From positions 32,001-96,000 of IMG/VR virus record IMGVR_UViG_3300037840_000148: DNA of 64,000 nt. The stretch is one strand, 5' to 3'. Numbering within the stretch: position 1 is the first letter of the stretch; the number at the start of each line of letters is the position of its first letter. A program made the position numbers and the translations under genes. Of the stretch, positions 12,910-41,985 are shown piece after piece. A model generated the notes under the pieces. That model was given only the letters and a program-made list of their open reading frames with translations. It had not been told where the DNA came from and ran no database searches. The DNA comes from a virus.

Positions 12910-13128
12910 ATGCGACAAGAAAACGGCGGAGGCGACAAACTCGCTTCCGGAGCAGCGCGGGCGTCATTTAGAACTTCAAATTCTAAAGTTACAGCCGAGA
13001 AATGGGCGGCTATCTGGGATGACTATGAACCAGAATCAAAAATCCGTAGTAGTGATTCCAACGCTCCGTCGACCGGAGATGTTAGCTCTGACGCTACAGC
13101 ATCTGTCCCAGACGCGACAGGCTTCTAG
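12910..13128 (+). CDS. Small hypothetical protein overlapping the next gene
   Basis: Strong SD AGGAGG; 72 aa. Confidence 0.6.
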   Translation: MRQENGGGDKLASGAARASFRTSNSKVTAEKWAAIWDDYEPESKIRSSDSNAPSTGDVSSDATASVPDATGF

Positions 13129-13795
13129 TCTAGACGTCCGGATCTACGTCGATCATACGACGGAACAAAGACTTGATGAAGTAGAATACGTCCGAGATAC
13201 GTTCTTCCCGACGGCGGATATTTTTCACGCCGCGACACACGTCTTGTGCCCGGGCGGGACGTGGAACATCCTGCAATCCCTGAAATCCGGATATGAAACT
13301 GGTGTGGAATTTATTTTCTTCGTTGAGGAAGACGTCTTTGTCCGGCCGGAATTCTTCGATAGGCATCTAGAGATGCAGGCGAGCGGCGATTACTTCGTGA
13401 CATGCGGCAGAAAGCTACCGAATAGAGATGAGTTTTACTATTCCAACCCCGGGACGTGTTACCGCCGCGAGAAGTTGGCTTTAGTCATTCCACATATCAA
13501 CGATAGATACTTTGCGGATCAAGCTGGATACGTCGAGGAACATTTTCCTAATATGCAGGACGCTGGAACTAACGATGACGGTTTGATTCGGCGCGTGATG
13601 CAATCCGTTGGCGGAAAAGCTTTATGCGCCGTCCCGCCAACTGCCTACCATCAAGGGTTTCACTATTACAACCGGATGCCGCAATTCACGGTCGAGGGAA
13701 CACTACCAGAGAAGATTGAACAACTAAAGGTTTTGTTACAGAAGGTTAATCCGAAAGATCGATATTCATCCGACTTCGAGCCATTTAATGGCTGA
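13019..13795 (+). CDS. GT-A glycosyltransferase, GT13/POMGNT1-like
   Basis: VVVIPTLRRPEML..IYVD..FVEEDVFVRPEFF, compare POMGNT1 NRPNYL..VFID..LEEDLDIAVDFF. Confidence 0.7.
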   Translation: MTMNQNQKSVVVIPTLRRPEMLALTLQHLSQTRQASSLDVRIYVDHTTEQRLDEVEYVRDTFFPTADIFHAATHVLCPGGTWNILQSLKSGYETGVEFIFFVEEDVFVRPEFFDRHLEMQASGDYFVTCGRKLPNRDEFYYSNPGTCYRREKLALVIPHINDRYFADQAGYVEEHFPNMQDAGTNDDGLIRRVMQSVGGKALCAVPPTAYHQGFHYYNRMPQFTVEGTLPEKIEQLKVLLQKVNPKDRYSSDFEPFNG

Positions 13796-15570: not shown

Positions 15571-16563
15571 TTAGTTTGTTGGAATTTTAAATCCATATCC
15601 CGCCTTTAATGCGTATTCTTTTCTTGTTGTTAAATCTTGACCAATTTTTATATATCTATCTGTAATATCGGCATTGCTTGAATGCCCCATCCAATACCGC
15701 ATCAAACTCCTCGGGATATTCTGGCTTTCAAGGTGAGTCGCCCTGAACCGCCGGAAAGCGTGAAAACCCTCCGTAATCCCGACGTCTTCTAGTTGATCGT
15801 AGGCCGTTTCAACCCTGACGTGACCGCCAAGGCTATTTTGGAACAAAAAGCCCGTCTCGGGGAGTTTCGCATCGATTAAATACTGGTTTACGTCCGAGTG
15901 GAGGTCAACTTCCCTGTTCCCGGCTTCCGTCTTGGGTTGTGGCTCGATACGGCCGCGGACTAGTGTACTCTTTACCACCACGACGGCTTTTAGGGGGTTC
16001 CAATACGAGAAGCCATAAGTGCCTCCTAGAGGGATTTTTTCCGGTATTATGCCGCAGCCCGGAACAGTAGATCCATAAGTCGTTGTATGGTGCCCTTGTA
16101 AAGCTAAGGCTTCCCCTACACGAAGACCTGACGCCGCAAGTAGTATCAGAAGACTCCTAACCTGCTTTGGTGCCTGTAATAGGCTCGTATCGATTTGTTC
16201 CGGGGTTACAATAGGCGCGTCGACTTCCTGCTGATTCACGATAGGCAGGTCGATAAAGTCATGATTCCACTTCCGTGGGTATAACTCGTTGCCATTCAAA
16301 TCAGTAGCAGACGAAATTACAGCCTTCACGACGTTGAAAATCTGATTGATTGTCGAGGCGGCTAAACCGACGTTATTCAACTCCGCTATAAAAGCCTTCA
16401 TTTTGCCGTTATCGACATACTCAAGATCCGCGTCGCCTAATCTCGGCAAAATGTGATTGTTCAAATATGAATCATAGATTCGGACGGTCGCTGGCCGGAC
16501 AGGCGAACGACGACGCGTTTGAATCCATTCGATGTATTTCACGGCTTGTTGTTCGAATTTCAT
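15571..16563 (-). CDS. Tyrosine recombinase / integrase
   Basis: SAM-like N-domain (HILPRLG, LAASTIN); SGLRVGEALAL, KT, HAFRR, MGH, Y catalytic set. Confidence 0.9.
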   Translation of the reverse strand: MKFEQQAVKYIEWIQTRRRSPVRPATVRIYDSYLNNHILPRLGDADLEYVDNGKMKAFIAELNNVGLAASTINQIFNVVKAVISSATDLNGNELYPRKWNHDFIDLPIVNQQEVDAPIVTPEQIDTSLLQAPKQVRSLLILLAASGLRVGEALALQGHHTTTYGSTVPGCGIIPEKIPLGGTYGFSYWNPLKAVVVVKSTLVRGRIEPQPKTEAGNREVDLHSDVNQYLIDAKLPETGFLFQNSLGGHVRVETAYDQLEDVGITEGFHAFRRFRATHLESQNIPRSLMRYWMGHSSNADITDRYIKIGQDLTTRKEYALKAGYGFKIPTN

Positions 16564-22760: not shown

Positions 22761-23270
22761 TTAACTGTTAATTCGTCTTACCCAATCACTGAAAAACGGC
22801 CTATCTTCCGGCTTCGCGGCAATGATGTTAATAACGTGTTGAACCATATTAGCTTTATAGTATGTCAACAATGATACCGGCTCGGCGGCGTTCAACGTTT
22901 CAAGCGTCACCGGCCCGAATATTGTGTCAGACGCAATCCCGAGAGAAAATTGCAGGACTTTGACAGCCGTTCCGACACCAAATAAAATACCGAGGTCGAA
23001 CAATTTGTTTGCGATAAACTGGTCTTTTATCTGGGAATATAAAGGCTTCCAGTACCCCTCTAAATAAATCTCAGCCGCTCTGTCAGTCGTGAGATTCTTG
23101 ATGTCTTCGTTAGGAAATTCCGCGGCGCTGATACCATACTTCGTGCCCTTTAATTCGCCGACGCCGACCTTTCCGCCGGTCCAGTTGCCGGAATCGTCGT
23201 GGAGGCATTGATAGCCGCCCTCGTGCGTGTCATCGATGGTTATGAGAAATGCGGTTTTAAAATCTGACAT
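22761..23270 (-). CDS. Endolysin, glycoside hydrolase 108 with peptidoglycan-binding domain
   Basis: HEGGY..D.G..TKYGIS..YW; DTIFGPVT; W..R. Confidence 0.9.
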   Translation of the reverse strand: MSDFKTAFLITIDDTHEGGYQCLHDDSGNWTGGKVGVGELKGTKYGISAAEFPNEDIKNLTTDRAAEIYLEGYWKPLYSQIKDQFIANKLFDLGILFGVGTAVKVLQFSLGIASDTIFGPVTLETLNAAEPVSLLTYYKANMVQHVINIIAAKPEDRPFFSDWVRRINS

Positions 23271-24432: not shown

Positions 24433-25002
24433 TCATAACGCTTTCTTTGGCCCACGGGCTTGATATTTATCCGGTTTCGCAACGAAACTTTCAAAATCCA
24501 CCGGAGCGTAATTTGTGTACTCGATAGCGAACAACCGCTGCCACGGATTATTTAACCGCTCGTGTTTCATGACATCATTGGCCGAAAAATCTCCATATTT
24601 TGGGTCATTAGGATGAAAACCGTGCCAGATATTGTGTAGATGCCCGTGCAAATTAAGCTCTGCCCCTTCCGGTAAAGACTTAGCGGGCTCGTGTGTCAAC
24701 CAACAGTTTCTAAACATCAAGCCGTCACATGCGAAATCAAATCCGGCTTTCATCCAACGGAGATTCGACCATTGCCGGTCGTGATTACCGCGAACAAGGA
24801 TCTTTTTGCCTGGTAATGCCGGTATAATCCAATCACTTTTCTTCCCGATTTGAACGTCTCCGAGATGGATTATCAAATCGTCCGGTTTCACGATTTGATT
24901 CCAATTCTTGATGATTCGCTCCGTGAAGTCCGTCGGGCGGTCGCAGTATGTCGTGATATTTTGATGATTAAAGTGGGTATCCGAGCAAATAAAAGTCTTC
25001 AT
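24433..25002 (-). CDS. Calcineurin-like metallophosphoesterase
   Basis: SDTHFNH, HLGD, GNHD, THEP, HGHLH. Confidence 0.9.
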   Translation of the reverse strand: MKTFICSDTHFNHQNITTYCDRPTDFTERIIKNWNQIVKPDDLIIHLGDVQIGKKSDWIIPALPGKKILVRGNHDRQWSNLRWMKAGFDFACDGLMFRNCWLTHEPAKSLPEGAELNLHGHLHNIWHGFHPNDPKYGDFSANDVMKHERLNNPWQRLFAIEYTNYAPVDFESFVAKPDKYQARGPKKAL

Positions 25003-25039
25003 GTCTTCGTCCTCTTCTGGAAACCAATTATCATGCCAA

Positions 25040-25171
25040 TCAACTATCTTTATCATAAGGTAGCGCTGCTGCTAATACCAAGACTGCCAAGACTAGAAAT
25101 ATCCATAATATCCATAAAATCCACCGGTCAGGAATCGATTGAAGAAAATACAAAAAGCTATAATAGCCCAT
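25040..25171 (-). CDS. 43-aa membrane peptide
   Basis: WILWILWIFLVLAVLVLAAAL fills the intergenic gap. Confidence 0.4.
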   Translation of the reverse strand: MGYYSFLYFLQSIPDRWILWILWIFLVLAVLVLAAALPYDKDS

Positions 25172-25511
25172 CTAGTGCTCCGATGCGGTAAAGGCGGTCT
25201 AGTTCGACTTGAAACCGCATCCCGTGGCCGCCATCTACAGGATAGCCTTTATAATCCTGTAAATCAAGATATGCGTGAGCCATTTCATGTAAAAGAACCA
25301 AGCTAGTAAGATTTTCATAACCCCTTAAACCGGAGTCAATCAAAATATACTTTTTATCGCTATTATAAACCCCGTCGGCATGCTTCATTCTGACCGTATT
25401 AGAAAAACCTACATAAGTCAGCATTATCTTGCTTTGAAAAAATTGAAAATTAAGTCGATCAAACTCTTTTTGGAGTTTCTTGTCCGTCATCTTTTTCATC
25501 TTTATTATCAA
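25158..25511 (-). CDS. SprT-like zinc metalloprotease
   Basis: FDRLNFQFF..LLHEMAH..HG..F. Confidence 0.8.
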   Translation of the reverse strand: MIIKMKKMTDKKLQKEFDRLNFQFFQSKIMLTYVGFSNTVRMKHADGVYNSDKKYILIDSGLRGYENLTSLVLLHEMAHAYLDLQDYKGYPVDGGHGMRFQVELDRLYRIGALDGLL

Positions 25512-26136
25512 TCCTCAATTCATATGTCCCGAGTTCAGCGACACATGTAAATAGCGTCCGGTCCCACTCAAGTTGTTTATCTACGTAATAATGCCCAAAA
25601 CACCACTCTTTCGGTTGATGGATATCAAACATCGCCTGTAAAGCTTCGGCTGTTCTGGACATCGAGCACTCCATCTTAGCCGTGAAATACGGCCCGACTA
25701 AAGTCATAAGAAGCATTTTAGCTATTTTAGACGGCGCTTCGTGCGACAAAACAAACTTCGGCTTGACAGTTTCATAAAAATCAATAGCTTTTTGAAGCTC
25801 TTCGTAACTCAATTCTTCATCCGGCCACCATGAAACGCCTGTTTGGCGCACCATTCTGTCAATTGAAAATGCCCCGGCGAGCCAGAATAGTTCATACTCA
25901 GGTAGGTATCCCCAATCACCGAGATAATTCGGGTGCTTTCGGCACTTCTCCGGATTATCGTGATTCCCCCGGAACCATTTATGGTCCTGGGACATATTAT
26001 GGACGACTACACCAGAAAAGCCGACGCCCATATCGCCAACTTGGATGCTTTTTTGACCATCCGGAAGATTACGAACTAAACGCTTATAGTCTCCAGTCTT
26101 CCCGTGGACATCTCCAATAACGACAATTTTAGTCAT
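25459..26136 (-). CDS. Calcineurin-like metallophosphoesterase
   Basis: GDVHG, GDMG, GNHD, GAFSIDR, SHEAP, FGH. Confidence 0.9.
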   Translation of the reverse strand: MTKIVVIGDVHGKTGDYKRLVRNLPDGQKSIQVGDMGVGFSGVVVHNMSQDHKWFRGNHDNPEKCRKHPNYLGDWGYLPEYELFWLAGAFSIDRMVRQTGVSWWPDEELSYEELQKAIDFYETVKPKFVLSHEAPSKIAKMLLMTLVGPYFTAKMECSMSRTAEALQAMFDIHQPKEWCFGHYYVDKQLEWDRTLFTCVAELGTYELRIDNKDEKDDGQETPKRV

Positions 26137-27058
26137 GTTGATCTCGATACCAATCGATTGTACGCCTTAAACCCGTCATTATATCAGTCTTTGGCTGGAA
26201 GTCAAGTAATTTCTTTGATCTAGATGTATCTAGACACCGCCTTGGTTGACCGTCTGGCTTATCTCGGTGAGTAAAAAATGGCCACTTATAACCAATAATT
26301 TCAGCTATTCTTTCTGCTATCCCAAAAATCGAAATTTCTTCACCGCTGCCGAGGTTAATTGGATCAGGCTCATTATAGATTTCCATCGCTTTGACAATCG
26401 CTTCGGCACAATCTTCAACATAAAGAAAGTCGCGTGTTGTAAGACCGGAACCCCACATATCAACAAACTTCTCATTATTCTTGACTGCGAAATCAATTTT
26501 CTTAATCAATGCCGGAATAACGTGACTTGTTTCAGAATCGAAGTTATCCCCCGGCCCGTAAAGATTTGTCGGGATCAAATAGATTGAATTAAAAAGATAT
26601 TGCTGACGTAATGCCTGACTATACGTCAATAATAGCTTCTTAGCCAGACCGTATGGCGCGTTTGTTTCCTCCGGATAGCCATTATGGATGTCTTCTTCCT
26701 TGAACGGCACCGACGTCATTTTAGGGTAGGAACAAACAGTCCCGACAGTCACGAGTTTCTCGATGTCGAAGTCTTTCGCGGCTCTCATTATTTCCAAACC
26801 CATCACGGCATTATCATATAGAAAGTCAGCCGGACTAGTTTGATTCGCACCGATTCCACCGACGTTAGCGGCTAAATGGATTACTATTTCCGGACCTTCT
26901 ATCGAAAACATCCCGTCAACGTCTGTTTGATTTGTAAGATCATACCGTTCGTGTGACGGAACAATGACGTCTGAATACCCCCGTTCCCACAGCTTCTGAC
27001 AGACGTGCTTGCCGAGAAAGCCGTGACCGCCGGTGACTAAAATACGTTTACTTAGCAT
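26129..27058 (-). CDS. fcl: GDP-L-fucose synthase
   Basis: [57 protein letters not shown]. Confidence 0.95.
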
Positions 27059-28001
27059 ATATTTCCGAGTTCACCATGATTTTTACTAATTCTTTGAACT
27101 TCACTTTTGGCGTCCAACCGAGTTTTTCCTTTGCGTAAGAGGCGTCTCCTAACAAGTTTTCAACTTCCGTCGGACGATAATACTTCGGGTCAACTTCGAC
27201 ATAATCTTCCCAATCTAGTCCAAGATATGTAAACGCCTCATAACAGAATTCACGGACTGAATGTGATTCACCGGTTGCTAGGACATAATCATCCGGAATA
27301 TCTCGCTGAAGCATCCGCCACATCCCTTCAACAAATTCCGGCGCGTATCCCCAATCTCTCGTGGCCGACAAATTACCGAGTCTCAGAACGCCGCGCAGAC
27401 CGCGATAAATCTCGACAGCACCTTTGACAATCTTCTGAGTTACGAATGTCTCGCCTCGCCGCGGTGATTCGTGGTTGAACAAAATCCCGTTTGAAACGTG
27501 CATCTTATATCCTTCTCGATAATTCCTTGCCATCCAATATCCATACAATTTAGAAATGCCGTACGGGCTGCGAGGCGCAAATTTTGTATATTCATTCTGA
27601 GGAACGCAAGTAGTATTACCAAACATTTCGCTACTCGATGCCTGATAAAACCTTGATTCAGGCACGATATCTCGAACGGCTTCTAATAAACGTAATGTTC
27701 CAATAGCATCAGCGTTAGTTGTGTATTCCGGGATATCAAAACTACTCCGAACGTGTGATTGTGCCCCCAATGCGTAAATTTCATCTGGTTTTGAATCATA
27801 TACTAGTTTTCGGATTGATCCGGTATCCGTTAAATCGGCATAAATCAAATTTAACTTATCAAAAATATGGTCGATTCTTCTAGTATTAAAACTAGACGAT
27901 CTACGTAAAGAACCGTAGACAGAATAACCCTTCTGCAATAAAAGTTCGGCGAGATAAGAACCGTCCTGGCCCGTAATTCCAGTGATCAAAGCACGCTTCA
28001 T
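27048..28001 (-). CDS. gmd: GDP-mannose 4,6-dehydratase
   Basis: [45 protein letters not shown]. Confidence 0.97.
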
Positions 28002-29716
28002 CGACGGCCTCGTTGCGAATCCCGCTGCTCTCTGAACTTCCTGGCGCTTTCAATCCTGTCCTGTCGTTCTTTATCGTTTGATTTCGGTGTAATTCGGCCG
28101 TTATCCAAAACGCGGTCTGCCCAATCCGCGCCGGGGTATATGTTGCTGAGATACGGCGGATGTAAACCGCGAATTTCGTCGAGTTTCTTGCCATTCCGTT
28201 CGATAAATAGCGAACACCCAGCATAGAAATGCGGGAATTCCGGTTCGTTAGCTAGAAACATTGCTGGTTCTTTTGTCAAGGACATTTTCAAATTGTAGCA
28301 AATCCAGCTTGCCGCGCTTTGGTCATGCCTGTGTCCGAGAACATCAGGATTGCTTGATGCTTGAAGTTTTTCGTTTGTCCACGGACCTCGGAAGACGCCA
28401 AGTTTAGCCAACCGCTTATATTCTTCAAAGAATTGAACCGCGGTGGGGTTCAGGAAATTCAAAGCAAAAGCCGTACAGATTACCTGCGGAACCTTCTTCA
28501 TTTCATTCCGCTGACGGTCGATTAGTTTCAAAGCCTCGTCAGAGATCCACTCGTAATTAGTATTAGGTCCGTTAATCGAGATCCAATAACCTTGCTTCTC
28601 GACTAAATTCCAGATTGTTTCAAGACTCCTGACCGCGATAACGGATGAATCCGCCCACAGAATCTTAGTATAGCCTAGCCGCCGGGCTTCCTCGATAGCG
28701 TGGATCTTGAATTCATATGGACTGTCTTCGTGTGTCGGTGAGCCGACCGGCAGGACATCCTTGAACGTCATGATTTTCGCGCCTGGGCTATTGACTTGCA
28801 TCTGATGAACGAACCGGTCGAGGTTATCCGAGAAAGGCTTCCCGATCAGTTCTTCTTCATTCTGTTTCCCTGTATACTCACGTTTTCCTACCGCGACTGT
28901 CACGATTGTTTTATCCGTGCTGAGACTACCCATAAGCTGCCACCTCCGTGGAATCATATCTCTTGAATCTAGATGTTCGACTACAAACCACTTCCGTGGG
29001 GCGCAGACGATCCTGTCAGCTTTATTATCCCCCAAAAATGCCGCCCACCAACCGTAGCTGGAATTCGAAATTACTGCGTGCTGACATTGACTCATTAAGT
29101 GCATATCCCAAAAACGGTCGCCAGTTGAAATTATTTCGCCTTCGATGTTTTCATGGCACCAATCCGGATCATCGCTAAAAATGAAAGGCTTCGCGTGCGG
29201 ATACTTTTGCCTGATACTATTAATACAATTTTGATAATACGCTATCGGCATCAAGCCATGATAATCCTGTAAACTGACATAATCGCCACGACGAACATGG
29301 ACGCCAACTGAATCACTTGTGTTTAGTATTTTATTCAACAATTCGCTGACGTCTTTTTTAGGAAAGTTCTTTGGAACAAACTCCTTTCGAAGCTCATCAG
29401 CGACACACTCAATATACCGTTCGCTTTGCCAATGCCCCGTCAATGTGCAGTTTCGTGGTGGATCGTAGATGTCCGGCCGGAATGTCATATTAGAGTCTGT
29501 GATTTCAGGACCATCAGAGTCACCGAAAACAATCTTCGTCTTGAAGCCGTCAAGGCCGTATTGTGGCTTATTCAAAGCATGCGGCTCATTAGACGCAGGC
29601 AGAAGGTCACGTTTTTTAAATACGACTTCGTAGCCACGTTTTTGTAAACTTCGGCCCATCGCGTATTGAAAAAGTTGGTTCCCGAGACCGCCCATCAGCG
29701 CGATTGCGATTGGCAT
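27998..29716 (-). CDS. alpha-1,2-fucosyltransferase (GT11) fused to a second putative GT-A domain
   Basis: [41 protein letters not shown]; C-half ILWADSS..HRHDQS. Confidence 0.9.
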
Positions 29717-30252
29717 TCAATCTCCTTCTTTTCCATCCACTCAAGCACTTTTCTAACTTGTTCAGTCGTTGCTTTTGATTTTATCGCGTTAGCTAAATAT
29801 GATATAACCGAACAATTTTCTTTTGTGTATCCTAACTCTGGTATAAATCTATCCAAACTTGCAGACGTATCAGTTTGTGTAAAATGCGATAAATTAAATG
29901 GTGTACCAAAAACAGGACATTTACCATTTCCGATTAGCTCCAAAAGATCCTCTTTCGTAATACTTATTGGTAAATTCATCTTTTTAGCTCTTTGTTTCGC
30001 AGATGTTAGCATTTGTTGAGCCACAGCAGGAAATCCTATACACATTTTACACTGGTGTCTAATTCGACCGTGCCCGCAAATCTGATGACCGCCACAATCA
30101 GGACATCTTGATTTTCTACGACTATGTATGCAAAACTGATTTCCTGTTCCACATTTACTACATTGAATGGGAACATTTCCGTGTTTACAAAAAGGCCCTA
30201 TATTGCACTCTTTACAACAATTCTTTCTTCTGCCATGTTTACAATTACTCAT
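29695..30252 (-). CDS. HNH-type homing endonuclease with N-terminal Cys/His repeats
   Basis: CxH..CxxC repeats; CPVFG..SLDRFIPELGYTKEN..AN..K; AT-rich. Confidence 0.75.
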   Translation of the reverse strand: MSNCKHGRRKNCCKECNIGPFCKHGNVPIQCSKCGTGNQFCIHSRRKSRCPDCGGHQICGHGRIRHQCKMCIGFPAVAQQMLTSAKQRAKKMNLPISITKEDLLELIGNGKCPVFGTPFNLSHFTQTDTSASLDRFIPELGYTKENCSVISYLANAIKSKATTEQVRKVLEWMEKKEIECQSQSR

Positions 30253-30935
30253 TTATTTTTTAAAAAATCAGGATGAAACCTTCTTATTTTCTCTGTATAC
30301 TCTTCTTTTTTATTCCATCCAACAGATGCAAACTGATTTTCTCTTCTCCTATACCAAAAAAGAGGCTCATTAATAGAAGCCATTTTCCAATTTCTAGCTA
30401 ATATCTCGATCCACAAAAACCAATCTTCCCAACTATCAATATCTGTTCTATAACCTCCTGCCTGCAGAAACGCTTCCCGGTCAATCAAAGACGTCACGGG
30501 GATTTCATTACTCTGCAATTGCTCTTCATACGTTCTGTTCTTAATCGGAATAACGCCGTTTTCAATCCCGAAATACATCATCTCCGTCGAGACAATCCCG
30601 ATTCCGGCAGTCATCAACGGCAAAGTCTTCTTGATGAAGTCCGGACGAATCATGTCGTCGGCATCTAACGGCAGAATGTAATCACCACATGACAAGCTGA
30701 CGGCGTGATTCCTAGCTGCCGCAGGTCCGGCATTTTTCTGCCGAACGAGCTTAATCAAATTTCCTTCATTGATAAATTTCTCGACGGTCGCGTAACTCGT
30801 ATCCGTCGAGCCATCATCCACGACAATTATCTCCCGTTTGACACCCTCGACTGGGTGTTGATTGATAGCCGAAAATACACTGCTTTCAATCGTCGCGGCG
30901 GCATTAAACATCGGGATAATTATGCTGACAATCAT
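30249..30935 (-). CDS. Glycosyltransferase family 2
   Basis: VSIIIPMFN, VVDDGSTD, NAGPAAARN, LDADD, EDW. Confidence 0.92.
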   Translation of the reverse strand: MIVSIIIPMFNAAATIESSVFSAINQHPVEGVKREIIVVDDGSTDTSYATVEKFINEGNLIKLVRQKNAGPAAARNHAVSLSCGDYILPLDADDMIRPDFIKKTLPLMTAGIGIVSTEMMYFGIENGVIPIKNRTYEEQLQSNEIPVTSLIDREAFLQAGGYRTDIDSWEDWFLWIEILARNWKMASINEPLFWYRRRENQFASVGWNKKEEYTEKIRRFHPDFLKNK

Positions 30936-30938
30936 AAT

Positions 30939-31085
30939 TTACTCAAACTTAAACGGCCAAAATTTTAAACGTTCCCATATAGACATCACTATATAGATAA
31001 TTGCTATCCCAAGAGCCATACCCATAAAAGCTATAAAATACCCAACTATAGCGGCATAAAGAACCATCATTACGAATGTCTTCAT
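30939..31085 (-). CDS. 48-aa hydrophobic membrane peptide
   Basis: MKTFVMMVLYAAIVGYFIAFMGMALGIAIIYIVMSIWERLKFWPFKFE; ATGA coupling. Confidence 0.5.
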   Translation of the reverse strand: MKTFVMMVLYAAIVGYFIAFMGMALGIAIIYIVMSIWERLKFWPFKFE

Positions 31086-31777
31086 TTCTGAAAGCCCTTT
31101 TCACGCGCAACTAAAATTGGCTGATACTTCGCTCGGACTGAATCGTACCCCGGTCCTGCTGTTGGCTCTGGATAACAATACGCCGGTGTCAGGATTTTCG
31201 CGGGCGGGTTATAGTGTAAATAGTGGTTCAAGTGACTTTCATCATTATGGATTGCGATACAACCCCACTCTAGATCTTTATCGATGTTGTCTCGTAACGT
31301 TCTAGCCATTTTGAGATACGCTTGGGCATTACCACCATTAAAGCCGCCGCAGAAATAATACTTATTGCCTACAAGATAGGCGGTCGATTGCGGTCTTGTG
31401 CTTTCAGGAACTCCCGGGCCACCTTCCGGATAGCCGGGATGTAACGTCGCCGTGATGCCTTGACTGTAAATATTTCCGACTGGCGCGACGAATTCCATAT
31501 CAGCATCGACCCAGAAGATTTGATCATACGTTTCTAATTCTTTTTCAAGTATCAACATCGTATGATACCTGAAAAGCGTTTCTTTCGGGAAGCCTTTCGG
31601 TTCGATAATTACCATTTGTTTTATAATATCAGCAGGATAAGAATCAATAAAACAATCACTAAAAAGGAAAACATCTATCCCCTCCGGATAAAAGAATTTT
31701 TTGGCAGACCTGATCATCGTTTTAGCGAAAGGCCAGTACTGTTCGCCTGTCGCGATACAAATCAAGGCTATTTTCAT
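31082..31777 (-). CDS. Glycosyltransferase family 6 (ABO-like alpha-1,3-GalNAc/Gal transferase)
   Basis: IATGEQY, FSD, DAD, TLHPGY, YFCGGFNGG, NDESHLN, KILTPAY. Confidence 0.9.
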   Translation of the reverse strand: MKIALICIATGEQYWPFAKTMIRSAKKFFYPEGIDVFLFSDCFIDSYPADIIKQMVIIEPKGFPKETLFRYHTMLILEKELETYDQIFWVDADMEFVAPVGNIYSQGITATLHPGYPEGGPGVPESTRPQSTAYLVGNKYYFCGGFNGGNAQAYLKMARTLRDNIDKDLEWGCIAIHNDESHLNHYLHYNPPAKILTPAYCYPEPTAGPGYDSVRAKYQPILVAREKGFQK

Positions 31778-32601
31778 CTTCGGTTCTTCCGTTGCTCTTT
31801 AAACTTCCTACCCGATTCCATTCTAGCACGAGCCTCGTCGTTTGTCAACATCTTTAATTTCGGTTGCTTACTGAGCATCTTCATGACGTCGTATTCTTCG
31901 CTAGCGACTTCTTCGTACCACGGCTCAGGACGGCCGTGACGGTAAATTTCACGGATCATCTCAGGGAAAAATTTATGTTCGAAAACTGCAAACCGCTTGA
32001 CGTGCCATGAAGCGTTGCACTCTAAATCCGGAAGATCTATAGCATGAATCACTTTAGCTCGAATAAACGGCCCGAGTACCTGTCCGACGCCAAGGTCTTC
32101 TGCCCATCCTTGAACTCCCTTCGCGGCGATAATGTTTGCTGCGTGTCTAGAAATCCAATACCCGACCCCCCCAGACGCCCAGGGCTCGCAACGCTCATGA
32201 AGTATCTCGTGACAATCCCGGTAAGTAAAAATCGAGCCTATCGGCGGATCGAGTCCAAACATCCCGGCGTAATCATATTCACGGAATGACGTCCCTAACA
32301 AAGCGTGCGGAATAATGAAAGTATCGTTATCACATAAAAACGTGAAATCATATCCGTTCTGGACTGACCACTCAGCAATCTTGGTCGTTTTGGCAGGCAG
32401 GTCGTCATAGCCGTCTTTGCAGTCCAGTTGAGTTTCGTCCTGCTGGTAGCCGCCGAAACCTGACTGGTGTTCACCACACCCAGTGAAGAAACGAACGTCC
32501 GCTTTACCAGCGAAATCTTTCCCCCACGTAGCGCGTATCGCCTCATGGAAGCCAAGATCTAGATCGCGGCAGCACGTCTTAAGAGCTATGAGTATTTTCA
32601 T
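31774..32601 (-). CDS. GT31-like (beta-1,3-galactosyltransferase/Fringe) glycosyltransferase
   Basis: AIRATWG, DGYDDLPAKT, CDNDTF, SGGVGYWIS, EDLGVG. Confidence 0.8.
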   Translation of the reverse strand: MKILIALKTCCRDLDLGFHEAIRATWGKDFAGKADVRFFTGCGEHQSGFGGYQQDETQLDCKDGYDDLPAKTTKIAEWSVQNGYDFTFLCDNDTFIIPHALLGTSFREYDYAGMFGLDPPIGSIFTYRDCHEILHERCEPWASGGVGYWISRHAANIIAAKGVQGWAEDLGVGQVLGPFIRAKVIHAIDLPDLECNASWHVKRFAVFEHKFFPEMIREIYRHGRPEPWYEEVASEEYDVMKMLSKQPKLKMLTNDEARARMESGRKFKEQRKNRR

Positions 32602-32842
32602 CTTCTTTAATCCACAGGACTAATCGATCATAGTGTTCTTGACACAAAAACGAATTATGATTAGCAAAATGCCAAATCTTTACAGCCTCTCGACGGCAGG
32701 CCGTAGCCCAAGTTTTAGACCATTTAAAGGCTCCAATAAAATCACCTTTTTCATCTATTTTAACGAATTCACAAAGTCTTCCTATCATCTTGTTCTCTTT
32801 GACTCTATAATCATAGCCAAAACCCGACCGATTTGACAACAT
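32579..32842 (-). CDS. Hypothetical protein (probable start MIGRLC)
   Basis: Fills gap; LCQEH. Confidence 0.45.
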   Translation of the reverse strand: MLSNRSGFGYDYRVKENKMIGRLCEFVKIDEKGDFIGAFKWSKTWATACRREAVKIWHFANHNSFLCQEHYDRLVLWIKEDENTHSS

Positions 32843-32922
32843 TCTTGCAAATTTTTAGCATTAAGACACCGCTCGCAAGCCCTAACGTGGTTATTCAAAC
32901 TCTCCTGATCTTTGTCCATTAC

Positions 32923-33882
32923 TTATTTCCAAATTTGACTTACTATCGCATCCAATTTTGCGTTTATTTCAGTTTGTTCTTTAGCGTAATCTCGGCGTCC
33001 AAGAATGGTATCAATCATTTTTCGCGCTTCATCAAGCGGCAGCCTTAGTCCAGCGGCATGTTGGTGCCCGCCGCCGAGAAACTTCTTAGCAATTTCACTG
33101 ACGTCGATATCACCAATCGACCGAAGACTAAATTGTACTTGCCCATCATGTCTCTCGAAGTATGTCAACGAGACGTCGGCGTTCTGTGCCAAAGTATTCC
33201 CGACTTCGCTGCAGTTGACATACGGGCACCCGACGACAAGCGTTGTATACGGTCGGTTATTAACCCACCAGACGCCTTTCTGGGCTTCGGCTGCGACTTC
33301 ACGGACGTATATGTCGATGTATCTCAAGACTGGAATTCCGAATTGCTCGGCTTGTTCGACTTTGATTTTATCAAGATAGTCCCATTCTTCGATTGTGAAT
33401 TTCAACGTCGAAATATAAGCGTTGACAGCTTTTGAGTTCGGTAATGCCCAATTCCATAAATCCCTATCCTCAACATAACTGACATACCACGGTCGTGTTT
33501 GATAAACGAACGGTTTCCCGATTTTTTCACCTTCCCAAATTATTGGTCTGTCTTTTCCAAATAAATAATCCCACGCCAGACCTGCGCCGCTTCGTTTCAT
33601 GTCAAACGTCACGAATGGCAAGCCCTCCAGCCGCTCCTGTGCAGTCCTGTGATGATCGTATATATGAAAACTCTTCGCGAGATCATGTAATTTGATGTTG
33701 TCTTCCCTGACCGGCCAACTGAAATCCAAAACTAATACATCGCGCCCTTTAACCACGTCAAACGGGACGGGCGAGCCGTGGTCTAACGGCATGATTTCAG
33801 CGTCTGGATAACGTTTCTTAGCAATAAAGGCAGCGCACCAACCATCAGGACATTTTGCGTGTGTGATGATAAAATTTATCAT
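32923..33882 (-). CDS. DHH/DHHA1 phosphoesterase
   Basis: H..CPDG, LDFS, DHH, SGA.L.W, EDRDLW, SLRS, GGGHQHAAG. Confidence 0.92.
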   Translation of the reverse strand: MINFIITHAKCPDGWCAAFIAKKRYPDAEIMPLDHGSPVPFDVVKGRDVLVLDFSWPVREDNIKLHDLAKSFHIYDHHRTAQERLEGLPFVTFDMKRSGAGLAWDYLFGKDRPIIWEGEKIGKPFVYQTRPWYVSYVEDRDLWNWALPNSKAVNAYISTLKFTIEEWDYLDKIKVEQAEQFGIPVLRYIDIYVREVAAEAQKGVWWVNNRPYTTLVVGCPYVNCSEVGNTLAQNADVSLTYFERHDGQVQFSLRSIGDIDVSEIAKKFLGGGHQHAAGLRLPLDEARKMIDTILGRRDYAKEQTEINAKLDAIVSQIWK

Positions 33883-34568
33883 TAGTGTTTCCTTTGATTT
33901 AATCTTTGTTCATGTGCTGTTGCCCATTGAACATTTCCAGACTCATAATGCCCGTCATTTTTGATTCTATCTAATGAGTGTTTAGGGCTGGGTTTAGGCC
34001 CTAATTCAGATAAAAATTGTTCAAAATTCGTAAATAAAAATTTAATGCCCCTACCACCGTAATCTTTCCATCTAGGATTAGTTTCATAAGTACAGCGGTG
34101 TTTTGCATCTTTATAAGCACTCCATTCAGGTGTGCCGGACATCCCATGTTTTACAATAGCTGGATTATCAGAAATATTTCTTAATGTTATTGTGTCTTTT
34201 CTTAAACAACTACAACTTTTTGTTAAACCTTTTGTTAAAGAAGTGCCTATCACAATGGTTTCTTTTCCACATTTGCACTCGCATAACCAATAAATACGTT
34301 GCTTACCGGATCTTCTAATTTGATTTTTTACCGTTAATCGCCCAAATACTTTATTATTTAAATTAGCTACTTCGTTTTTTAAACATCCGCAACTTTGAAT
34401 TTTACCGTTTAAAAGTTTACTAGCTAATACAACTTTTTTGTTTCCACAATCACATAAACAAAGCCACCCGCATCTTGATTCAGTTGAGGTAATTATTCTC
34501 ACGTCGCTTTTTTCAATAACCACCAATCGTCCAGAACGGAAACCTTTAATTAATTCAAGTTTCTTCAT
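33882..34568 (-). CDS. HNH homing endonuclease
   Basis: Two GRL.V..WLC.C.CG..SC.C repeats; YGGRGI; SLDRIKNDGHYESGN. Confidence 0.88.
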   Translation of the reverse strand: MKKLELIKGFRSGRLVVIEKSDVRIITSTESRCGWLCLCDCGNKKVVLASKLLNGKIQSCGCLKNEVANLNNKVFGRLTVKNQIRRSGKQRIYWLCECKCGKETIVIGTSLTKGLTKSCSCLRKDTITLRNISDNPAIVKHGMSGTPEWSAYKDAKHRCTYETNPRWKDYGGRGIKFLFTNFEQFLSELGPKPSPKHSLDRIKNDGHYESGNVQWATAHEQRLNQRKH

Positions 34569-35352
34569 AGTCTATCCTACCATCTCCAAGAACGTATTTT
34601 TTAATTTTTCTTTTTATAAAACATGGGCGCTGCGGATCTTGCGCCCGACGCCGATAAAGATTATATCTAGGACTATTTCTAATTTTTTGTTCATTTATAC
34701 CAACTCCCGAAACATAAACTGTTTTTAAGCCTGATTTTTTGCAGTCAAGGAAGAATGCGGCGTGCTCGGCCCCACCTATCTTAGGTTCAGGCACGTCCCA
34801 ACGTATTCCAGCCGCGTTTAAATGATCCATTCTAATCAACGAATAATTGACTGTTAAATCGCAATAAACAAATGGCGATTGCCAATACTCTTCCGCCGAC
34901 AACGGACGTTCATACCATTCGCCGGGCTGTCTTTCAATAAGATGAAATTCATACGGGCTATTATTGACTCGACCACTAGCGATACTAACTGGCGGATATT
35001 CTTCAAGAACCCGTTCGAGCCTTTTGATTCCTTGTCGAACTTCAGTAGGTGCGAAATCAAAATCGTCTGCACCAATCAATAAAAATTTTCTTTTAGTCCT
35101 TTCGACAATTGAGTTGCTCATGACCCCAAATCCACTATCGAAAGGCAAATCAATGTGGATGTGTCCGTCGCGCTCTAACCCCGCGTAATACGAGTCTTTT
35201 TCCTCCGTCATGTCGCCGCAATCCGCGATAATCATCTGCGCTCCGGGCAAATTAGTCCTGATGGCGTGCAGCGTATTAAACAACTGCTCGTCTCTTAAAA
35301 ACGTCTTGATGCCGATACTGAGATTTTCAAACATCAATCTATTTTCCGCCAA
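34555..35352 (-). CDS. GT-A glycosyltransferase, B4GALNT (GT12)-like
   Basis: IKTFLR..IIAD..LPFDSG..DDFDF..D.TVNY..EH..FFLD parallels B4GALNT TKTFLR..IAD..MPFGKG..DDDFVF..D..VNF..H..FFLD. Confidence 0.75.
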   Translation of the reverse strand: MAENRLMFENLSIGIKTFLRDEQLFNTLHAIRTNLPGAQMIIADCGDMTEEKDSYYAGLERDGHIHIDLPFDSGFGVMSNSIVERTKRKFLLIGADDFDFAPTEVRQGIKRLERVLEEYPPVSIASGRVNNSPYEFHLIERQPGEWYERPLSAEEYWQSPFVYCDLTVNYSLIRMDHLNAAGIRWDVPEPKIGGAEHAAFFLDCKKSGLKTVYVSGVGINEQKIRNSPRYNLYRRRAQDPQRPCFIKRKIKKYVLGDGRIDYEET

Positions 35353-39393: not shown

Positions 39394-39593
39394 TACTGCC
39401 AACCTTGCGGGTCTGTGAACGTCAAATTACTACAGTTGACCCGACAATCATCAAAACCTTTCCCGCCGTAGGCATCCTCGTCGCCTTCCATATATTCTAC
39501 CCAACTATAGAAGGCGTTCTCTTCCTCGACGTGAATAACGTAATCGTGGCCGTCGTTGTCACTTACTAATTTAAATCGCATACTCCTCCTCAT
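39393..39593 (-). CDS. Small hypothetical protein
   Basis: DNDGHDYVI. Confidence 0.55.
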   Translation of the reverse strand: MRRSMRFKLVSDNDGHDYVIHVEEENAFYSWVEYMEGDEDAYGGKGFDDCRVNCSNLTFTDPQGWQ

Positions 39594-41985
39594 AGACTTG
39601 TATCCGGTCTATGTAGTTATTTAGAAATTCGCTTCTAGGACCGAAATAACTCAACTCTAGATGCTTGGCTGCTCTGCTCGCCCCGACAAAAAATATTCTT
39701 TTCTCTTCCATAATTTCACCGTTTTTATGTGGAATTTTACCTTGACTACACCCAACTAGAAAAACATAATCGAATTCCAAACCCTTCGCTTTATGCACGG
39801 TGGCTAGAGTTAAACATTTTATTGCTTTCGTGGCGTATGCTAGCCTGCGGAGATAATTTAAAAACTCCGTGACATTACCCTTATTTGCGGACATCCTGAC
39901 GGCATCATTAAGATTCTTAACGGGATCATTCTCGGCATCAGCTAGGTTTCGGTAGATCCAAATCAAATTATGCTTCGTAATCAAATCCGCTAAAACCTCA
40001 TTAGCCGGACGAGTATCATTTGACTCCTTGGCTAATTTCAGAAGCCTTTTGACTTCCGACTGTTGCCAAAAACCATCTTTTCCTAAATATTTATAACGAA
40101 TATTTCTGCTTGTACACGCTTTCTGAAACGCGAACAATTGTCGGTTAGTACGAGCCAAAATCGCTGTATGCTCCGGATCAGTAATTTTTGATAAAACCCG
40201 GTCGGCTTCTTGTAAATCATACGAATATTCAACTACCGTAGGATCGACACCAACTTCATTATCAGTCGTCATGTGGCTTGCAATGCCGTTATCGACGGGC
40301 AAAATTTCCTTGAAAAATTCGACGAGCTTTTTAGTTGATCTGTAGTTTTGTCCAAGATATAAAGTTTTTGCATTTGGAAATCTCTCGTAAAACTTGGATA
40401 AGTTTCCAGCTTGGGCGCTTCTCCACTCATAAATACAATTTCCGACCGGAACATTATCTGCAATATAGGTGTGATCTTTTTCTACATCAAGAGAATAAAC
40501 GGGGCCACAATATTTAATCTTTTTAATTTTTTGAATAAGAGAGCTCTTATATGTTTTCTTTGTTGGTAAATCCATTAATTTTTCCAAAAGATTGGCTGCA
40601 ACCGTTTTAAAATATCCATGAAACTTTGTTCGATGTTTCTTTCTATTCCCCCAAGAAATTAAAGGGTATTCAAAAAGAAGCCCTTTTTCTAAAAGAAGAT
40701 TAAATCCTCCCGCCCAAGACACCGATTTAAAAACTCTTTTAATTTGTTGACCCGTAACCGCTGTTCTATAATTATGAAAAGTTCGTTCAGGTATCTGATA
40801 CTGTAAAGAATATATTTCTTCCCTAGTATGTGCCTCTGTATTGGATTCCACAACATCTAGTATCCACATCTTATCTGCTCGTTCCTGATATCCTCTATGA
40901 GATATTTGATTACCACCGCAGGCAGTTCTTAACGTACTTGTTCCTATTCTGAATCCCCGATCTCTTCTCCACATCAAATATACAAAATGCGTTTTATTTT
41001 GTAACGCTTTTCGGTTAAATTTTGTCCAAACGAAATGGTTTGGTGTGACTTTCGTAGTCTCATTATTCATTTCAATCTGTAAAAGATTTCCATCAAACTG
41101 ACGTACTGCTCTGCGAAAACGACGGCCTTTTCCTAATCGCATTCTTTTTCCATAATGATCCCATGAAACAATCCGGTCGTTTGTTTCGGATAAAAGCTCA
41201 ATTGGAACTTGCTTTACTTTTGCAGCTACTCGACCTTGAACCGGAGAAACCAAAACATCAACTAGAGTGCCGGGAGGCTGACATTGGTTTTCATCTCCAA
41301 CCGCAAACATATTGCCGTCAAATATAAGCTGAAGCAGCCTGAACTGTTTTTCGTCCGTGTCTTGAGCCTCGTCAACCGCTATATACTTCCTTTTCCACCT
41401 TGCTAAAACTTCCAGATTGGTTTCAAATAGCTTTACAACTTCAGTAATGCAAGCATCAAAGTCCAACCAGCCTTCCAAACGCATGCCCTTTTCGTATTGT
41501 TCATAAGCCAATGAATAAACGTACTCTGCGCCTTGGTGTCTAGCTTCTTCCATTGCCGTGGCTGGATCAGTATTTTCACACTTCCACCGAGTAATTTTCT
41601 CTCTGAGCGTCTTGTACTGCAGTTGTGGAAACTGCCGACAAAGCTCGGCCAAAAGCTGATAATCCTGAGCCTTGACGGGGATAATCTCGTCGCACAGTTC
41701 AAACGGCAGGTGCTCTCGTTCCTTCTTTAAGACTTCCAACGCGAAGCTATGAAAAGTCCTAAACGATGACTTCGCGTCCGTCATCCCAATCCGTGTTTGC
41801 ATCTGCTCGGCCGCGGCGTTTGTGAAGGTCAAATTCAGGATGTCCCGAGTGTTGATTCCACGAGTCAGCATCCGGATATACCGCTCTACCAAGACGGTCG
41901 TCTTGCCAGATCCTGGCCCTGCGATAGTTACCCAGACACCATCAATAGCGTTAGCAGCTAGCTCCTGTTGAGGATTAAGAATCAC
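39571..41985 (-). CDS. uvrD: UvrD/Rep/PcrA helicase with intein
   Basis: AGPGSGKT, TFTN, TFH, VDEAQD, GDENQ/CIYEWR, QNYRS, TVHKAKGLEF. Confidence 0.92.
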   Translation of the reverse strand: MILNPQQELAANAIDGVWVTIAGPGSGKTTVLVERYIRMLTRGINTRDILNLTFTNAAAEQMQTRIGMTDAKSSFRTFHSFALEVLKKEREHLPFELCDEIIPVKAQDYQLLAELCRQFPQLQYKTLREKITRWKCENTDPATAMEEARHQGAEYVYSLAYEQYEKGMRLEGWLDFDACITEVVKLFETNLEVLARWKRKYIAVDEAQDTDEKQFRLLQLIFDGNMFAVGDENQCQPPGTLVDVLVSPVQGRVAAKVKQVPIELLSETNDRIVSWDHYGKRMRLGKGRRFRRAVRQFDGNLLQIEMNNETTKVTPNHFVWTKFNRKALQNKTHFVYLMWRRDRGFRIGTSTLRTACGGNQISHRGYQERADKMWILDVVESNTEAHTREEIYSLQYQIPERTFHNYRTAVTGQQIKRVFKSVSWAGGFNLLLEKGLLFEYPLISWGNRKKHRTKFHGYFKTVAANLLEKLMDLPTKKTYKSSLIQKIKKIKYCGPVYSLDVEKDHTYIADNVPVGNCIYEWRSAQAGNLSKFYERFPNAKTLYLGQNYRSTKKLVEFFKEILPVDNGIASHMTTDNEVGVDPTVVEYSYDLQEADRVLSKITDPEHTAILARTNRQLFAFQKACTSRNIRYKYLGKDGFWQQSEVKRLLKLAKESNDTRPANEVLADLITKHNLIWIYRNLADAENDPVKNLNDAVRMSANKGNVTEFLNYLRRLAYATKAIKCLTLATVHKAKGLEFDYVFLVGCSQGKIPHKNGEIMEEKRIFFVGASRAAKHLELSYFGPRSEFLNNYIDRIQVYEEEYAI
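40438..41283 (-). mobile_element. Intein in UvrD (282 aa)
   Basis: Starts CQPPGT, block B TPNH, ends VYSLDV..HTYIADNVPVGN, +1 Cys; interrupts motif III. Confidence 0.88.

Follow-up and report, generated by a model that had tools for sequence, protein, structure and literature searches.

A glycosyltransferase and GDP-fucose gene cluster in an undescribed clade of large tailed phages, predicted to build a fucosylated H/A-type oligosaccharide

Gene clusters for the assembly of complex glycans are already known from phages. The one closest to the locus studied here lies in the cyanophage P-SSM2 (Sullivan et al. 2005, AY939844), in which a co-oriented run encodes a GDP-mannose dehydratase (gmd), three nucleotide-sugar epimerases, and glycosyltransferases (GTs) of the families GT2 (two), GT1, GT11, GT6 and GT25. 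S-SSM7 is among the relatives of P-SSM2 with such clusters, the GT11 and GT6 genes are adjacent in S-8S55, and S-SCSM1 encodes gmd, fcl and an alpha1,2-fucosyltransferase (PMC9602691). A phage clade of GT6 enzymes with a DXD motif had been described by 2012 (PMC3516806), and a soil-virome paper of 2025 lists GT6 and GT11 as auxiliary metabolic genes (AMGs) of phages. Here we describe a comparable run on the minus strand of a 64,000-nucleotide (nt) stretch, referred to below as the window, which comprises bases 32001-96000 of the 110,831-bp IMG/VR virus record IMGVR_UViG_3300037840_000148. From window position 35352 down to 26129, eleven tightly packed open reading frames (ORFs), most of which overlap their neighbours by 4-22 nt, include genes for a GT12-like and a GT31-like enzyme, GT6, GT2, a GT11 domain fused to a second GT-A domain, Gmd and Fcl. 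Two GT genes located elsewhere bring the genome to eight GT domains, six of them in the run, in addition to GDP-fucose synthesis. The seven functions that an earlier note, made from the letters alone, had placed in this run are all present there on the minus strand, and their family assignments all proved correct; the note had omitted the four interspersed ORFs and the two distant GT genes. The genes assigned to the glycan pathway are as follows, with amino acids abbreviated to aa and coordinates given in the window unless marked otherwise.

34555-35352, minus strand: GT12-like GT-A glycosyltransferase, 265 aa, first gene of the set; DDFD motif; TIGR04440, E 4e-5
31774-32601, minus strand: GT31-like glycosyltransferase, 275 aa; invariant D91-x-D93; overlaps the start of the GT6 gene by 4 nt
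31082-31777, minus strand: GT6 homologue of retaining alpha1,3-Gal/GalNAc-transferases, 231 aa; minimal catalytic domain with DXD
30249-30935, minus strand: GT2 inverting glycosyltransferase, 228 aa, soluble; PF00535, 102 bits; LDADD motif
27998-29716, minus strand: fusion of GT11 and a GT-A domain, 572 aa
28934-29716, minus strand: GT11 alpha1,2-fucosyltransferase domain, aa 1-261 of the fusion; PF01531, 102.2 bits (cut-off 23.9)
27998-28933, minus strand: second GT domain of the fusion, aa 262-572, an unclassified GT-A
27048-28001, minus strand: Gmd, GDP-mannose 4,6-dehydratase, 317 aa; TIGR01472, 453.7 bits (equivalog cut-off 415); PF16363, E 7.7e-129
26129-27058, minus strand: most likely Fcl (GMER), GDP-L-fucose synthase, 309 aa; NF047922, 284.8 bits, its best family by far
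13019-13795, plus strand: one more GT-A glycosyltransferase (GT2/GnT-I-like, 258 aa), closing the virion-module strand
genome 103397-104041, outside the window: GT31 paralogue; Pfam Galactosyl_T, 33.2 bits, above cut-off

Like the P-SSM2 run, the present one combines gmd and epimerases/reductases with GT2, GT11 and a minimal GT6 of the DXD type; the role of the P-SSM2-type cluster is assumed to be modification of the host surface. The novelty implied by the earlier note was therefore overstated, a comparable cluster being present in P-SSM2. The lineages differ, however: the cyanophages are T4-like cyanomyoviruses of 175-250 kb, whereas the phage described here belongs to a clade of ~100-125 kb with strong Shine-Dalgarno use, and its GT6 is 27-34% identical to the cyanophage enzymes. 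By its annotation the P-SSM2 record has GT1 and GT25 and no GT12- or GT31-like gene, whereas both of these are part of a conserved core here; the fusion of GT11 to a further GT-A domain is likewise unlike the P-SSM2 group. What is new is thus the undescribed lineage, the conserved GT12-like and GT31-like members, the fusions and the size of the toolkit.

Escherichia coli O86 (WbnH/I/J/K, gmd, fcl) offers a cellular parallel that shares both the logic and the enzyme families. In that pathway a GT2 beta1,3-galactosyltransferase, a GT11 alpha1,2-fucosyltransferase and a GT6 alpha1,3-transferase, together with GDP-fucose synthesis, are soluble and act on a sugar linked to undecaprenyl pyrophosphate (Und-PP), and the product is a blood-group-B-like O-unit (Yi et al. 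2005, as cited in PMC3516806). The O86 cluster differs in having Wzx and Wzy and in depending on WecA, none of which is encoded in the phage genome; in addition, the O86 GT6 is of the NXN type with a membrane-binding tail, whereas the phage GT6 is of the DXD type that lacks the BHB, as in clade 1 of the family.

Gmd exceeds its equivalog cut-off, and the gmd copies in the clusters of related phages are 55-65% identical. For the product of 26129-27058, whose score lies under the NF047922 equivalog cut-off of 500, the top 18 matches in the Protein Data Bank (PDB) are without exception GDP-L-fucose synthases (best E 7.5e-70; ~2e-57 for E. coli GMER), and the Cys, the YxxxK and the His-containing SHV(I/L)PALI motifs align, suggesting that it most likely works as Fcl.

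Among the GTs of the run, GT6, GT2 and GT11 are recognized by single-sequence searches. GT6 scores 67.4 bits against PF03414 (cut-off 25) and E 3.6e-40 against NF041524, and matches the solved enzymes BoGT6a (E 2.7e-27) and human GTA/GTB (~1e-18). The GT11 domain matches phrog_2644 over aa 8-261 (E 1.3e-45) and carries at aa 140-146 the sequence HVRRGDY, in agreement with the GDP-fucose motif HxRRxD. Profiles were more telling for the other two. A single GT12-like sequence matches human B4GALNT1 (9h6j) at E 2.9e-5; a profile of 14 phage homologues does so at E 2.7e-21 over positions 7-242 of 258 (236 positions), the next match being chondroitin synthase at 6.8e-10 over positions 5-93 only. Judged from these alignments, homology to GT12 (B4GALNT1/2-like) spans the catalytic domain, "GT12-like" being a statement of homology and not a formal CAZy/dbCAN class. 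The GT31-like protein alone reaches 19.9 bits against Pfam Galactosyl_T (PF01762), under the cut-off of 23, and the top seven matches of a 17-homologue profile are all GT31 enzymes (6e-12 to 5e-8), including B3GALT5 (6.3e-12), C1GALT1 (7.2e-10), B3GALT6 (5.5e-9) and B3GNT2 (4e-8).

The C-terminal domain of the GT11 fusion has 959 homologues at E<=1e-3, mostly stand-alone proteins of ~225 aa, and among the best 150 of the 959 it is fused to GT11 only in this protein. Sequence and profile searches of the PDB with this domain gave no match. An AlphaFold2 model made with a multiple sequence alignment reached pLDDT 87 and pTM 0.79 (the single-sequence model, pLDDT 42, was unusable), and Foldseek placed it near UGGT (GT24), LARGE1, alpha3GalT/GTB and XXT1 (E 4e-6 to 1e-4, TM ~0.4-0.5); as modelled, the domain has a predicted GT-A fold of the retaining type. 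The GT encoded at 13019-13795 matches Pfam Glyco_transf_7N at E 4.6e-4, under the cut-off, and the ESM Atlas, which we use as a lead only, places it with phage clusters resembling GT2/GnT-I/MGAT2 (score 0.95-0.97, TM <=0.89).

That these genes form a functional unit is indicated by their recurrence. With the DHH-family phosphoesterase encoded within the run as an anchor, two related contigs were found, G001 (77.8 kb) and G002 (97 kb). Both have the GT12-like, GT31-like, GT6, GT2 and GT11 genes at the same site, between a PD-(D/E)XK/helicase block and the lysin, with 28-48% identity for the cluster proteins, 66-69% for the portal and 81-84% for the capsid protein. Since a single-sequence GT6 scan of IMG/VR gave no match, an alignment-based scan was needed; it yielded 68 viral loci, at which homologues were counted within 10 kb of GT6. 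GT11 was found at 51/68, gmd at 33/68, GT2 at 27/68, the GT31-like gene at 19/68 and the GT12-like gene at 13/68. At least 13 contigs, 30-111 kb long and mostly of 75-111 kb, carry the five-GT core on a common backbone, in the shared order GT12l-(DHH)-GT31l-GT6-GT2/GT11-...-gmd-(fcl)-lysin, where l denotes "like"; the database survey that the earlier note had suggested as a check thus recovered the same gene set. Because gene set and order recur in relatives that have diverged to 28-53% protein identity, the cluster is far beyond chance. In almost every relative the GT31-like gene immediately precedes GT6, and in L072 and L073 the two are joined into one gene; GT6 is fused to GT2 in L062, and the GT11 and GT-A homologues that are fused here are separate adjacent genes in L072; such fusions are classical evidence for enzymes acting in one pathway. 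Homologues of the GT at 13019-13795 are present in G001 and G002 and not in the cluster-less G003, a complete relative of 118.8 kb, and in L065, L069 and L075 they lie within the glycan cluster.

In G003, which lacks all cluster genes, the equivalent site is occupied by a PP2C phosphatase and a Ro60/TROVE-vWA protein (L034:17474-19846), and the cluster therefore occupies a variable accessory island; Ro60-like proteins are uncommon in phages. The island of G002 is larger (L016:13692-20811, L028) and adds an RmlD-like reductase, a Polysacc_synt_2 enzyme of the UDP-HexNAc 4,6-dehydratase type, four unassigned ORFs and, ahead of a gmd 60% identical to the present one, a TylC3-like sugar C-methyltransferase; these extra sugar genes suggest a C-methylated deoxysugar in the G002 glycan. 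A C5 DNA methyltransferase is also encoded by G002.

The residues of GT6 bear on the terminal sugar. An alignment of 28 homologues shows little or no variation at the acceptor His (BoGT6a H122), the A2 position (Gly), the DXD and the catalytic Glu, the last two being invariant. The present enzyme conserves D91-A-D93, H113, G115, Y141, C143-G-G145, E180 (in NDES, the counterpart of GTA E303 / BoGT6a E192) and K227. Family-wide, the residue three before the conserved C-terminal Lys is small (an Ala before K227 here), and a Gly stands at the site of GTA Gly268. However, a Trp-His pair that is present in at least 90% of the alignment and in all solved GT6 structures is replaced by His177-Asn178 in this enzyme and in its 63% relative. 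In that pair the Trp (BoGT6a W189 / GTA W300) stacks against the acceptor and the His contacts the donor; the exact acceptor and donor are therefore less certain, and the protein is by sequence still a GT6 homologue whose specificity may differ. In the published scheme, a fucose-accepting GT6 has His at A1, Gly or Ser at A2 and a small residue at A7; a GalNAc donor is marked by Gly at GTA-268 (PMC3516806). Read against it, the family-wide residues agree with enzymes that accept fucosylated substrates and use GalNAc, and in the present enzyme H113, G115, the Ala before K227 and C143-G-G145 appear to fit the A-type pattern. Clade 1 of GT6, with a ~230-aa minimal catalytic domain, DXD and no C-terminal BHB, includes the P-SSM2 enzyme, marine metagenome sequences and PaGT6 of Parachlamydia, which transfers GalNAc onto the H antigen and needs a metal (PMC3516806). 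The phage enzyme shares the D-A-D, the catalytic Glu and the acceptor His with this clade and differs by His177-Asn178.

Taken together, GT11, Gmd/Fcl and the GT6 residues support an H-then-A-like end on a beta-Gal supplied by the GT31-like, GT2 or GT12-like enzyme. The product is probably a fucosylated H/A-type oligosaccharide, with the terminal step less sure; we infer the linkages from the behaviour of the families. The biochemical logic of the earlier note, in which Gmd and Fcl provide GDP-fucose, GT31 a beta1,3-Gal-type linkage, GT11 the H and GT6 the A-like structure, is largely borne out by the GT6-GT11 linkage at 51 of the 68 loci, the fusions in relatives and the family-wide GT6 residues. 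The likeness to histo-blood-group antigens (HBGA) is purely chemical and does not tie the phage to animals.

On what is this oligosaccharide built? The earlier note had stated that the GTs have no membrane anchor and that flippase, polymerase and priming transferase are lacking, and the full 110,831-bp genome bears this out. In a hydropathy scan the cluster proteins show zero hydrophobic segments, and none of the genome's ORFs of at least 40 aa has more than four; the sole four-segment ORF (125 aa) has no Pfam or PHROG match. Accordingly, no priming phosphoglycosyltransferase, flippase or polymerase of a Wzx/Wzy-type locus was found in the whole genome, nor a GtrA or polytopic protein of a Gtr serotype-conversion module (GtrA/GtrB/GtrX), and the GT2 gives GtrB-like PHROGs a weak N-terminal match (2.7e-13, aa 2-117) and has no hydrophobic tail. 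The further step taken in the note, from missing anchors and flippase to a cytoplasmic acceptor and hence virion proteins, is not supported. In bacteria these GT families are soluble enzymes of pathways of the O-antigen or lipooligosaccharide (LOS) type: WbnH/I/J/K of E. coli O86 and other O-antigen/LOS GTs are soluble or peripheral and use a priming transferase, flippase and ligase of the host. Because bacterial O-antigen GTs are soluble too, the lack of anchors, flippase and polymerase is uninformative on the acceptor.

We lean, at somewhat below an even chance, towards a lipid-linked glycan of the host envelope as the acceptor, and favour it over virion proteins; that the acceptor is something not considered here has a small share of the probability. 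In the model we propose, the run is a portable glycan-assembly cassette carried by a large tailed phage. Gmd and Fcl would convert GDP-mannose of the host to GDP-L-fucose, and the six soluble GT domains of the run and the two GTs encoded elsewhere belong to families that extend a sugar chain stepwise; both points have sequence evidence. Going by family specificities, the inverting GT2, GT12-like and GT31-like enzymes would lay down a HexNAc/Gal backbone with a terminal beta-Gal, GT11 would add alpha1,2-fucose to give an H-type epitope, GT6 would cap the Gal with an alpha1,3-linked sugar, probably GalNAc, to give an A-like epitope, and the extra retaining GT-A domain would contribute one more alpha-linked sugar. 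Least certain are the remaining steps, in which a lipid-linked primer of the host such as Und-PP-HexNAc may carry the growing chain on the cytoplasmic side of the membrane, the product may be exported by a host flippase and ligase or polymerase, and the lipopolysaccharide (LPS), capsule or glycoprotein surface of the host may be altered in lysogeny or infection. The likely effect would be superinfection exclusion, or progeny spared from re-adsorption to debris.

Several observations are in line with an envelope acceptor. A genome without priming transferase, flippase and polymerase must, on this reading, rely on those of the host; the clade-conserved integrase homologue allows lysogenic conversion; the cluster sits in a variable accessory island; and the equivalent cyanophage clusters have been read as host-surface modifiers (PMC9602691; PMC12801897). 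Others weigh against it. A five-GT core kept across 44-54% GC and alongside unrelated fibres and adhesins fits a phage-supplied acceptor at least equally well. The genome looks largely lytic (DNA polymerase, ribonucleotide reductase, primase, 32 tRNAs), with integration only predicted, and one GT gene closes the virion-gene strand. The A-like cap is not assured in a GT6 without the Trp-His contact pair, and we know of no experiment in any phage that shows such a cluster modifying LPS.

Glycosylation of the virion or of other phage proteins, with the chain built in the cytoplasm on capsid, tail or decoration proteins as a coat for stability, adhesion or shielding, was the choice of the earlier note and strikes us as possible but somewhat less probable. 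It has precedents: according to the account of Freeman et al. 2023 given in PMC11256854, the capsids of mycobacteriophages Che8 and Rita carry sugars added by phage GTs whose genes lie far from the structural ones, and PBCV-1 encodes GMD (A118R), GMER (A295L) and multi-domain GTs including a fucosyltransferase domain (A064R, A111/114R) for its capsid glycans (PMC9614988). The present phage shares with the former soluble GTs away from structural genes, and with the latter viral GDP-fucose synthesis and soluble multi-domain GTs; the GT-A domain resembles GT34-like folds, and beyond the fold the enzymes of the two viruses show no sequence relationship. Yet for Che8 and Rita, which infect actinobacteria and encode two to four GTs each, glycosylation is proven by experiment, and PBCV-1 is a eukaryotic giant virus with proven N-linked capsid glycans. 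A conserved phage acceptor would explain the five-GT core across differing GC and fibres, multi-domain fusions and all-soluble GTs are found here too, the GT gene at 13019-13795 ends the virion-gene strand, and the virion module has large proteins with 22-26% Ser+Thr. These Ser/Thr-rich proteins, however, carry classical signal peptides and would leave the cytoplasm. No initiating protein-GT family was recognized, the cluster is encoded on the replication/lysis strand, and no structural protein co-occurs with it in the relatives compared. Whether or not a relative has the cluster, its major capsid protein is 80-84% identical and ends in the same C-terminus; a test for a Ser/Thr tail that would set the capsids of cluster-bearing phages apart was negative, and the analysis yielded no positive evidence of glycosylated virions. 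The O-glycosylation motif of Bacteroidota was not clearly enriched in the virion-module proteins. The fuller claim, that an eight-domain toolkit of "animal-type" GTs (GT6, GT11, GT12-like, GT31-like, GT2 and the unclassified GT-A) with its own GDP-fucose supply coats the virions of a widespread, undescribed ~100-125-kb clade, probably of soil or freshwater, with an H/A-blood-group-like fucosylated glycan, appears to us rather doubtful.

Other acceptors are less probable still. A free or small-molecule-linked oligosaccharide, a cytoplasmic protein of the host or a wall polymer of Gram-positive bacteria such as teichoic acid would be compatible with soluble enzymes, and the prophage GT-A enzyme TarP is reported to modify wall teichoic acid; but an investment of eight clade-conserved GT domains is hard to justify for a diffusible product and no transporter or carrier gene lies beside the cluster, making this group of acceptors improbable. 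Hypermodification of DNA, where GTs act on hydroxylated pyrimidines to counter restriction as in T-even phages, RB69/DLP3 and the metagenomic 5mYOX/ThyA GT clusters, was raised in the earlier note and is in our view very improbable, although the cluster lies amid replication and nucleotide-metabolism genes, LPS-like phage GTs can place mono- to trisaccharides on 5hmC (bioRxiv 10.1101/2023.12.21.572611) and phage sugar-nucleotide genes serve the poly-arabinosylation of 5hoC (PMC13326640). Partner genes, either ThyA or a C5-methyltransferase together with 5mYOX/TET, are what defines the published DNA-GT clusters (bioRxiv 10.1101/2023.12.21.572611), and no such homologue was found in the complete genome: neither thymidylate synthase (PF00303; control positive in 10/14 genomes) nor C5-cytosine methyltransferase (PF00145; control positive in 9/14) is present, and Tet_JBP (PF12851) gave no match in a weak test whose control was silent. 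GT6, GT11 and fucose are without precedent on DNA, the string "fucos" occurring 0 times in the same preprint.

The eleven-ORF run also contains four interspersed ORFs that are not assigned to the glycan pathway, and two further genes of the window are of note.

33882-34568, minus strand: HNH homing endonuclease, an insert; phrog_374, E 1.9e-60
32923-33882, minus strand: DHH/DHHA1 phosphoesterase; Pfam DHHA1, E 9.7e-10; phrog_4771, E 2.5e-72
32579-32842, minus strand: 87-aa ORF; no family match, and no homologue in the relatives
29695-30252, minus strand: EndoVII/HNH-like endonuclease; phrog_3322, E 9.2e-33
22761-23270: GH108 lysin
15571-16563, minus strand: tyrosine integrase homologue; phrog_1, E 4e-27; Pfam Phage_int_SAM_3 barely over the cut-off

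The HNH endonuclease is not at the matching position in relatives L015 and L016, and the EndoVII/HNH-like endonuclease, homologues of which sit at other genome sites in relatives, is probably a mobile insert. With 50-56% identity in relatives without GT genes, the DHH phosphoesterase is, on this comparison, a backbone gene of the clade and not tied to the cluster. Two calcineurin-like metallophosphoesterases (25459-26136, overlapping fcl by 8 nt, and 24433-25056, both minus strand) and an SprT-like metallopeptidase are encoded between fcl and the lysin; they may have a role in the glycan pathway, for instance as a sugar-phosphate or pyrophosphate phosphatase.

The record, rated 100% complete and with ends that overlap by 127 bp, is a complete large tailed phage, possibly temperate. 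Its plus strand carries the tailed-phage set of terminase, portal and major head protein, and a long minus-strand block encodes a helicase, a family-A DNA polymerase, ribonucleotide reductase and primase; the 32 tRNA genes are all outside the window. The integrase homologue is kept at 35-42% identity in G001, G002 and G003, and a ~111-kb phage with its own DNA polymerase, 32 tRNAs and an integrase may be temperate, or the enzyme may serve other recombination. A nucleotide search with the cluster against 50,697 GenBank phages gave zero matches, and the best DNA-polymerase identity to cultured phages is ~34%; judged by these comparisons, the phage is far from cultured phages and a member of an undescribed clade of ~100-125 kb.

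Some features of the backbone deserve mention in their own right. The major capsid gene is split into 272-aa and 63-aa pieces (genome 12475-13735, L031), and in G001, G002, G003 and C90, a contig described below, it is broken at other, sometimes several, positions, a pattern consistent with the spread of mobile introns into the capsid gene throughout the clade. In the 804-aa helicase (39571-41985, minus strand) the relatives align only to aa 1-241 and 517-801; since the two halves are contiguous in them, ~275 aa are inserted here and may be an intein or a homing-endonuclease domain. A 551-aa virion-module protein (genome 28170-29825, plus strand; L032:8170-9825) contains two CBM5/12 modules (E 3.3e-14) and may be a glycan-binding fibre or decoration protein. 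Five virion-module proteins have signal peptides (genome 16019-18028, 18013-21984, 22000-22374 and 30575-34429, and window 2398-4422, plus strand), four of them with Ala|Gln cleavage sites; they contain 22-26% Ser+Thr, the four large ones are rich in Cys (14-22), and relatives have no homologues save two weak matches in G003. Sec-type export of virion-module proteins is odd.

As for the host, Shine-Dalgarno use is strong (50% vs 11% by chance), which argues against Bacteroidota and cyanobacteria. A Bacteroidota host, considered on account of signal peptides cut before Gln, was rejected on that ground and because the TAnnTTTG promoter motif is barely enriched (9/154 genes vs 2.8% background). 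The nearest cellular Gmd homologues (57-66% identical) are scattered over many phyla and therefore give no pointer to a host. One 209-kb contig, C90, of a Bryobacterales metagenome-assembled genome (G006; L212-L222) carries a portal homologue (67%). The first ~40 kb of this contig (~48% GC), cut by the contig end, are syntenic with the virion module; a 30-tRNA array follows at 47-50.5 kb, and beyond it come a Mutator-family transposase and bacterial-looking genes at ~60% GC. Prophage and chimeric assembly are not separable here, so that the contig is a weak host lead only; together with a neighbour cluster in the ESM Atlas it makes two weak leads to Acidobacteriota.

Clusters of "LPS-like" glycosyltransferase genes have been listed from phages for 20 years, yet to our knowledge none has been put to a functional test. 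The clade described here offers a compact version, present in at least 13 contigs, with a coherent prediction from GDP-fucose through the H structure to an A-like cap and with enzymes that can be expressed and assayed. The identity of the acceptor would settle whether such genes serve to reshape the host surface, to cover the virion or for some other purpose, and the answer bears on host range, on superinfection exclusion and on how AMG lists from viromes are read. If the sugars do coat the virion, actinobacteriophages and giant viruses would no longer be the only viruses known to bear a complex fucosylated virion glycan, and the finding would point to phages as the main environmental reservoir of GT6 and GT11. 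The minimal DXD GT6 and the phage versions of GT12 and GT31 also bear on the proposed prokaryote or phage origin of the vertebrate ABO-type enzymes.

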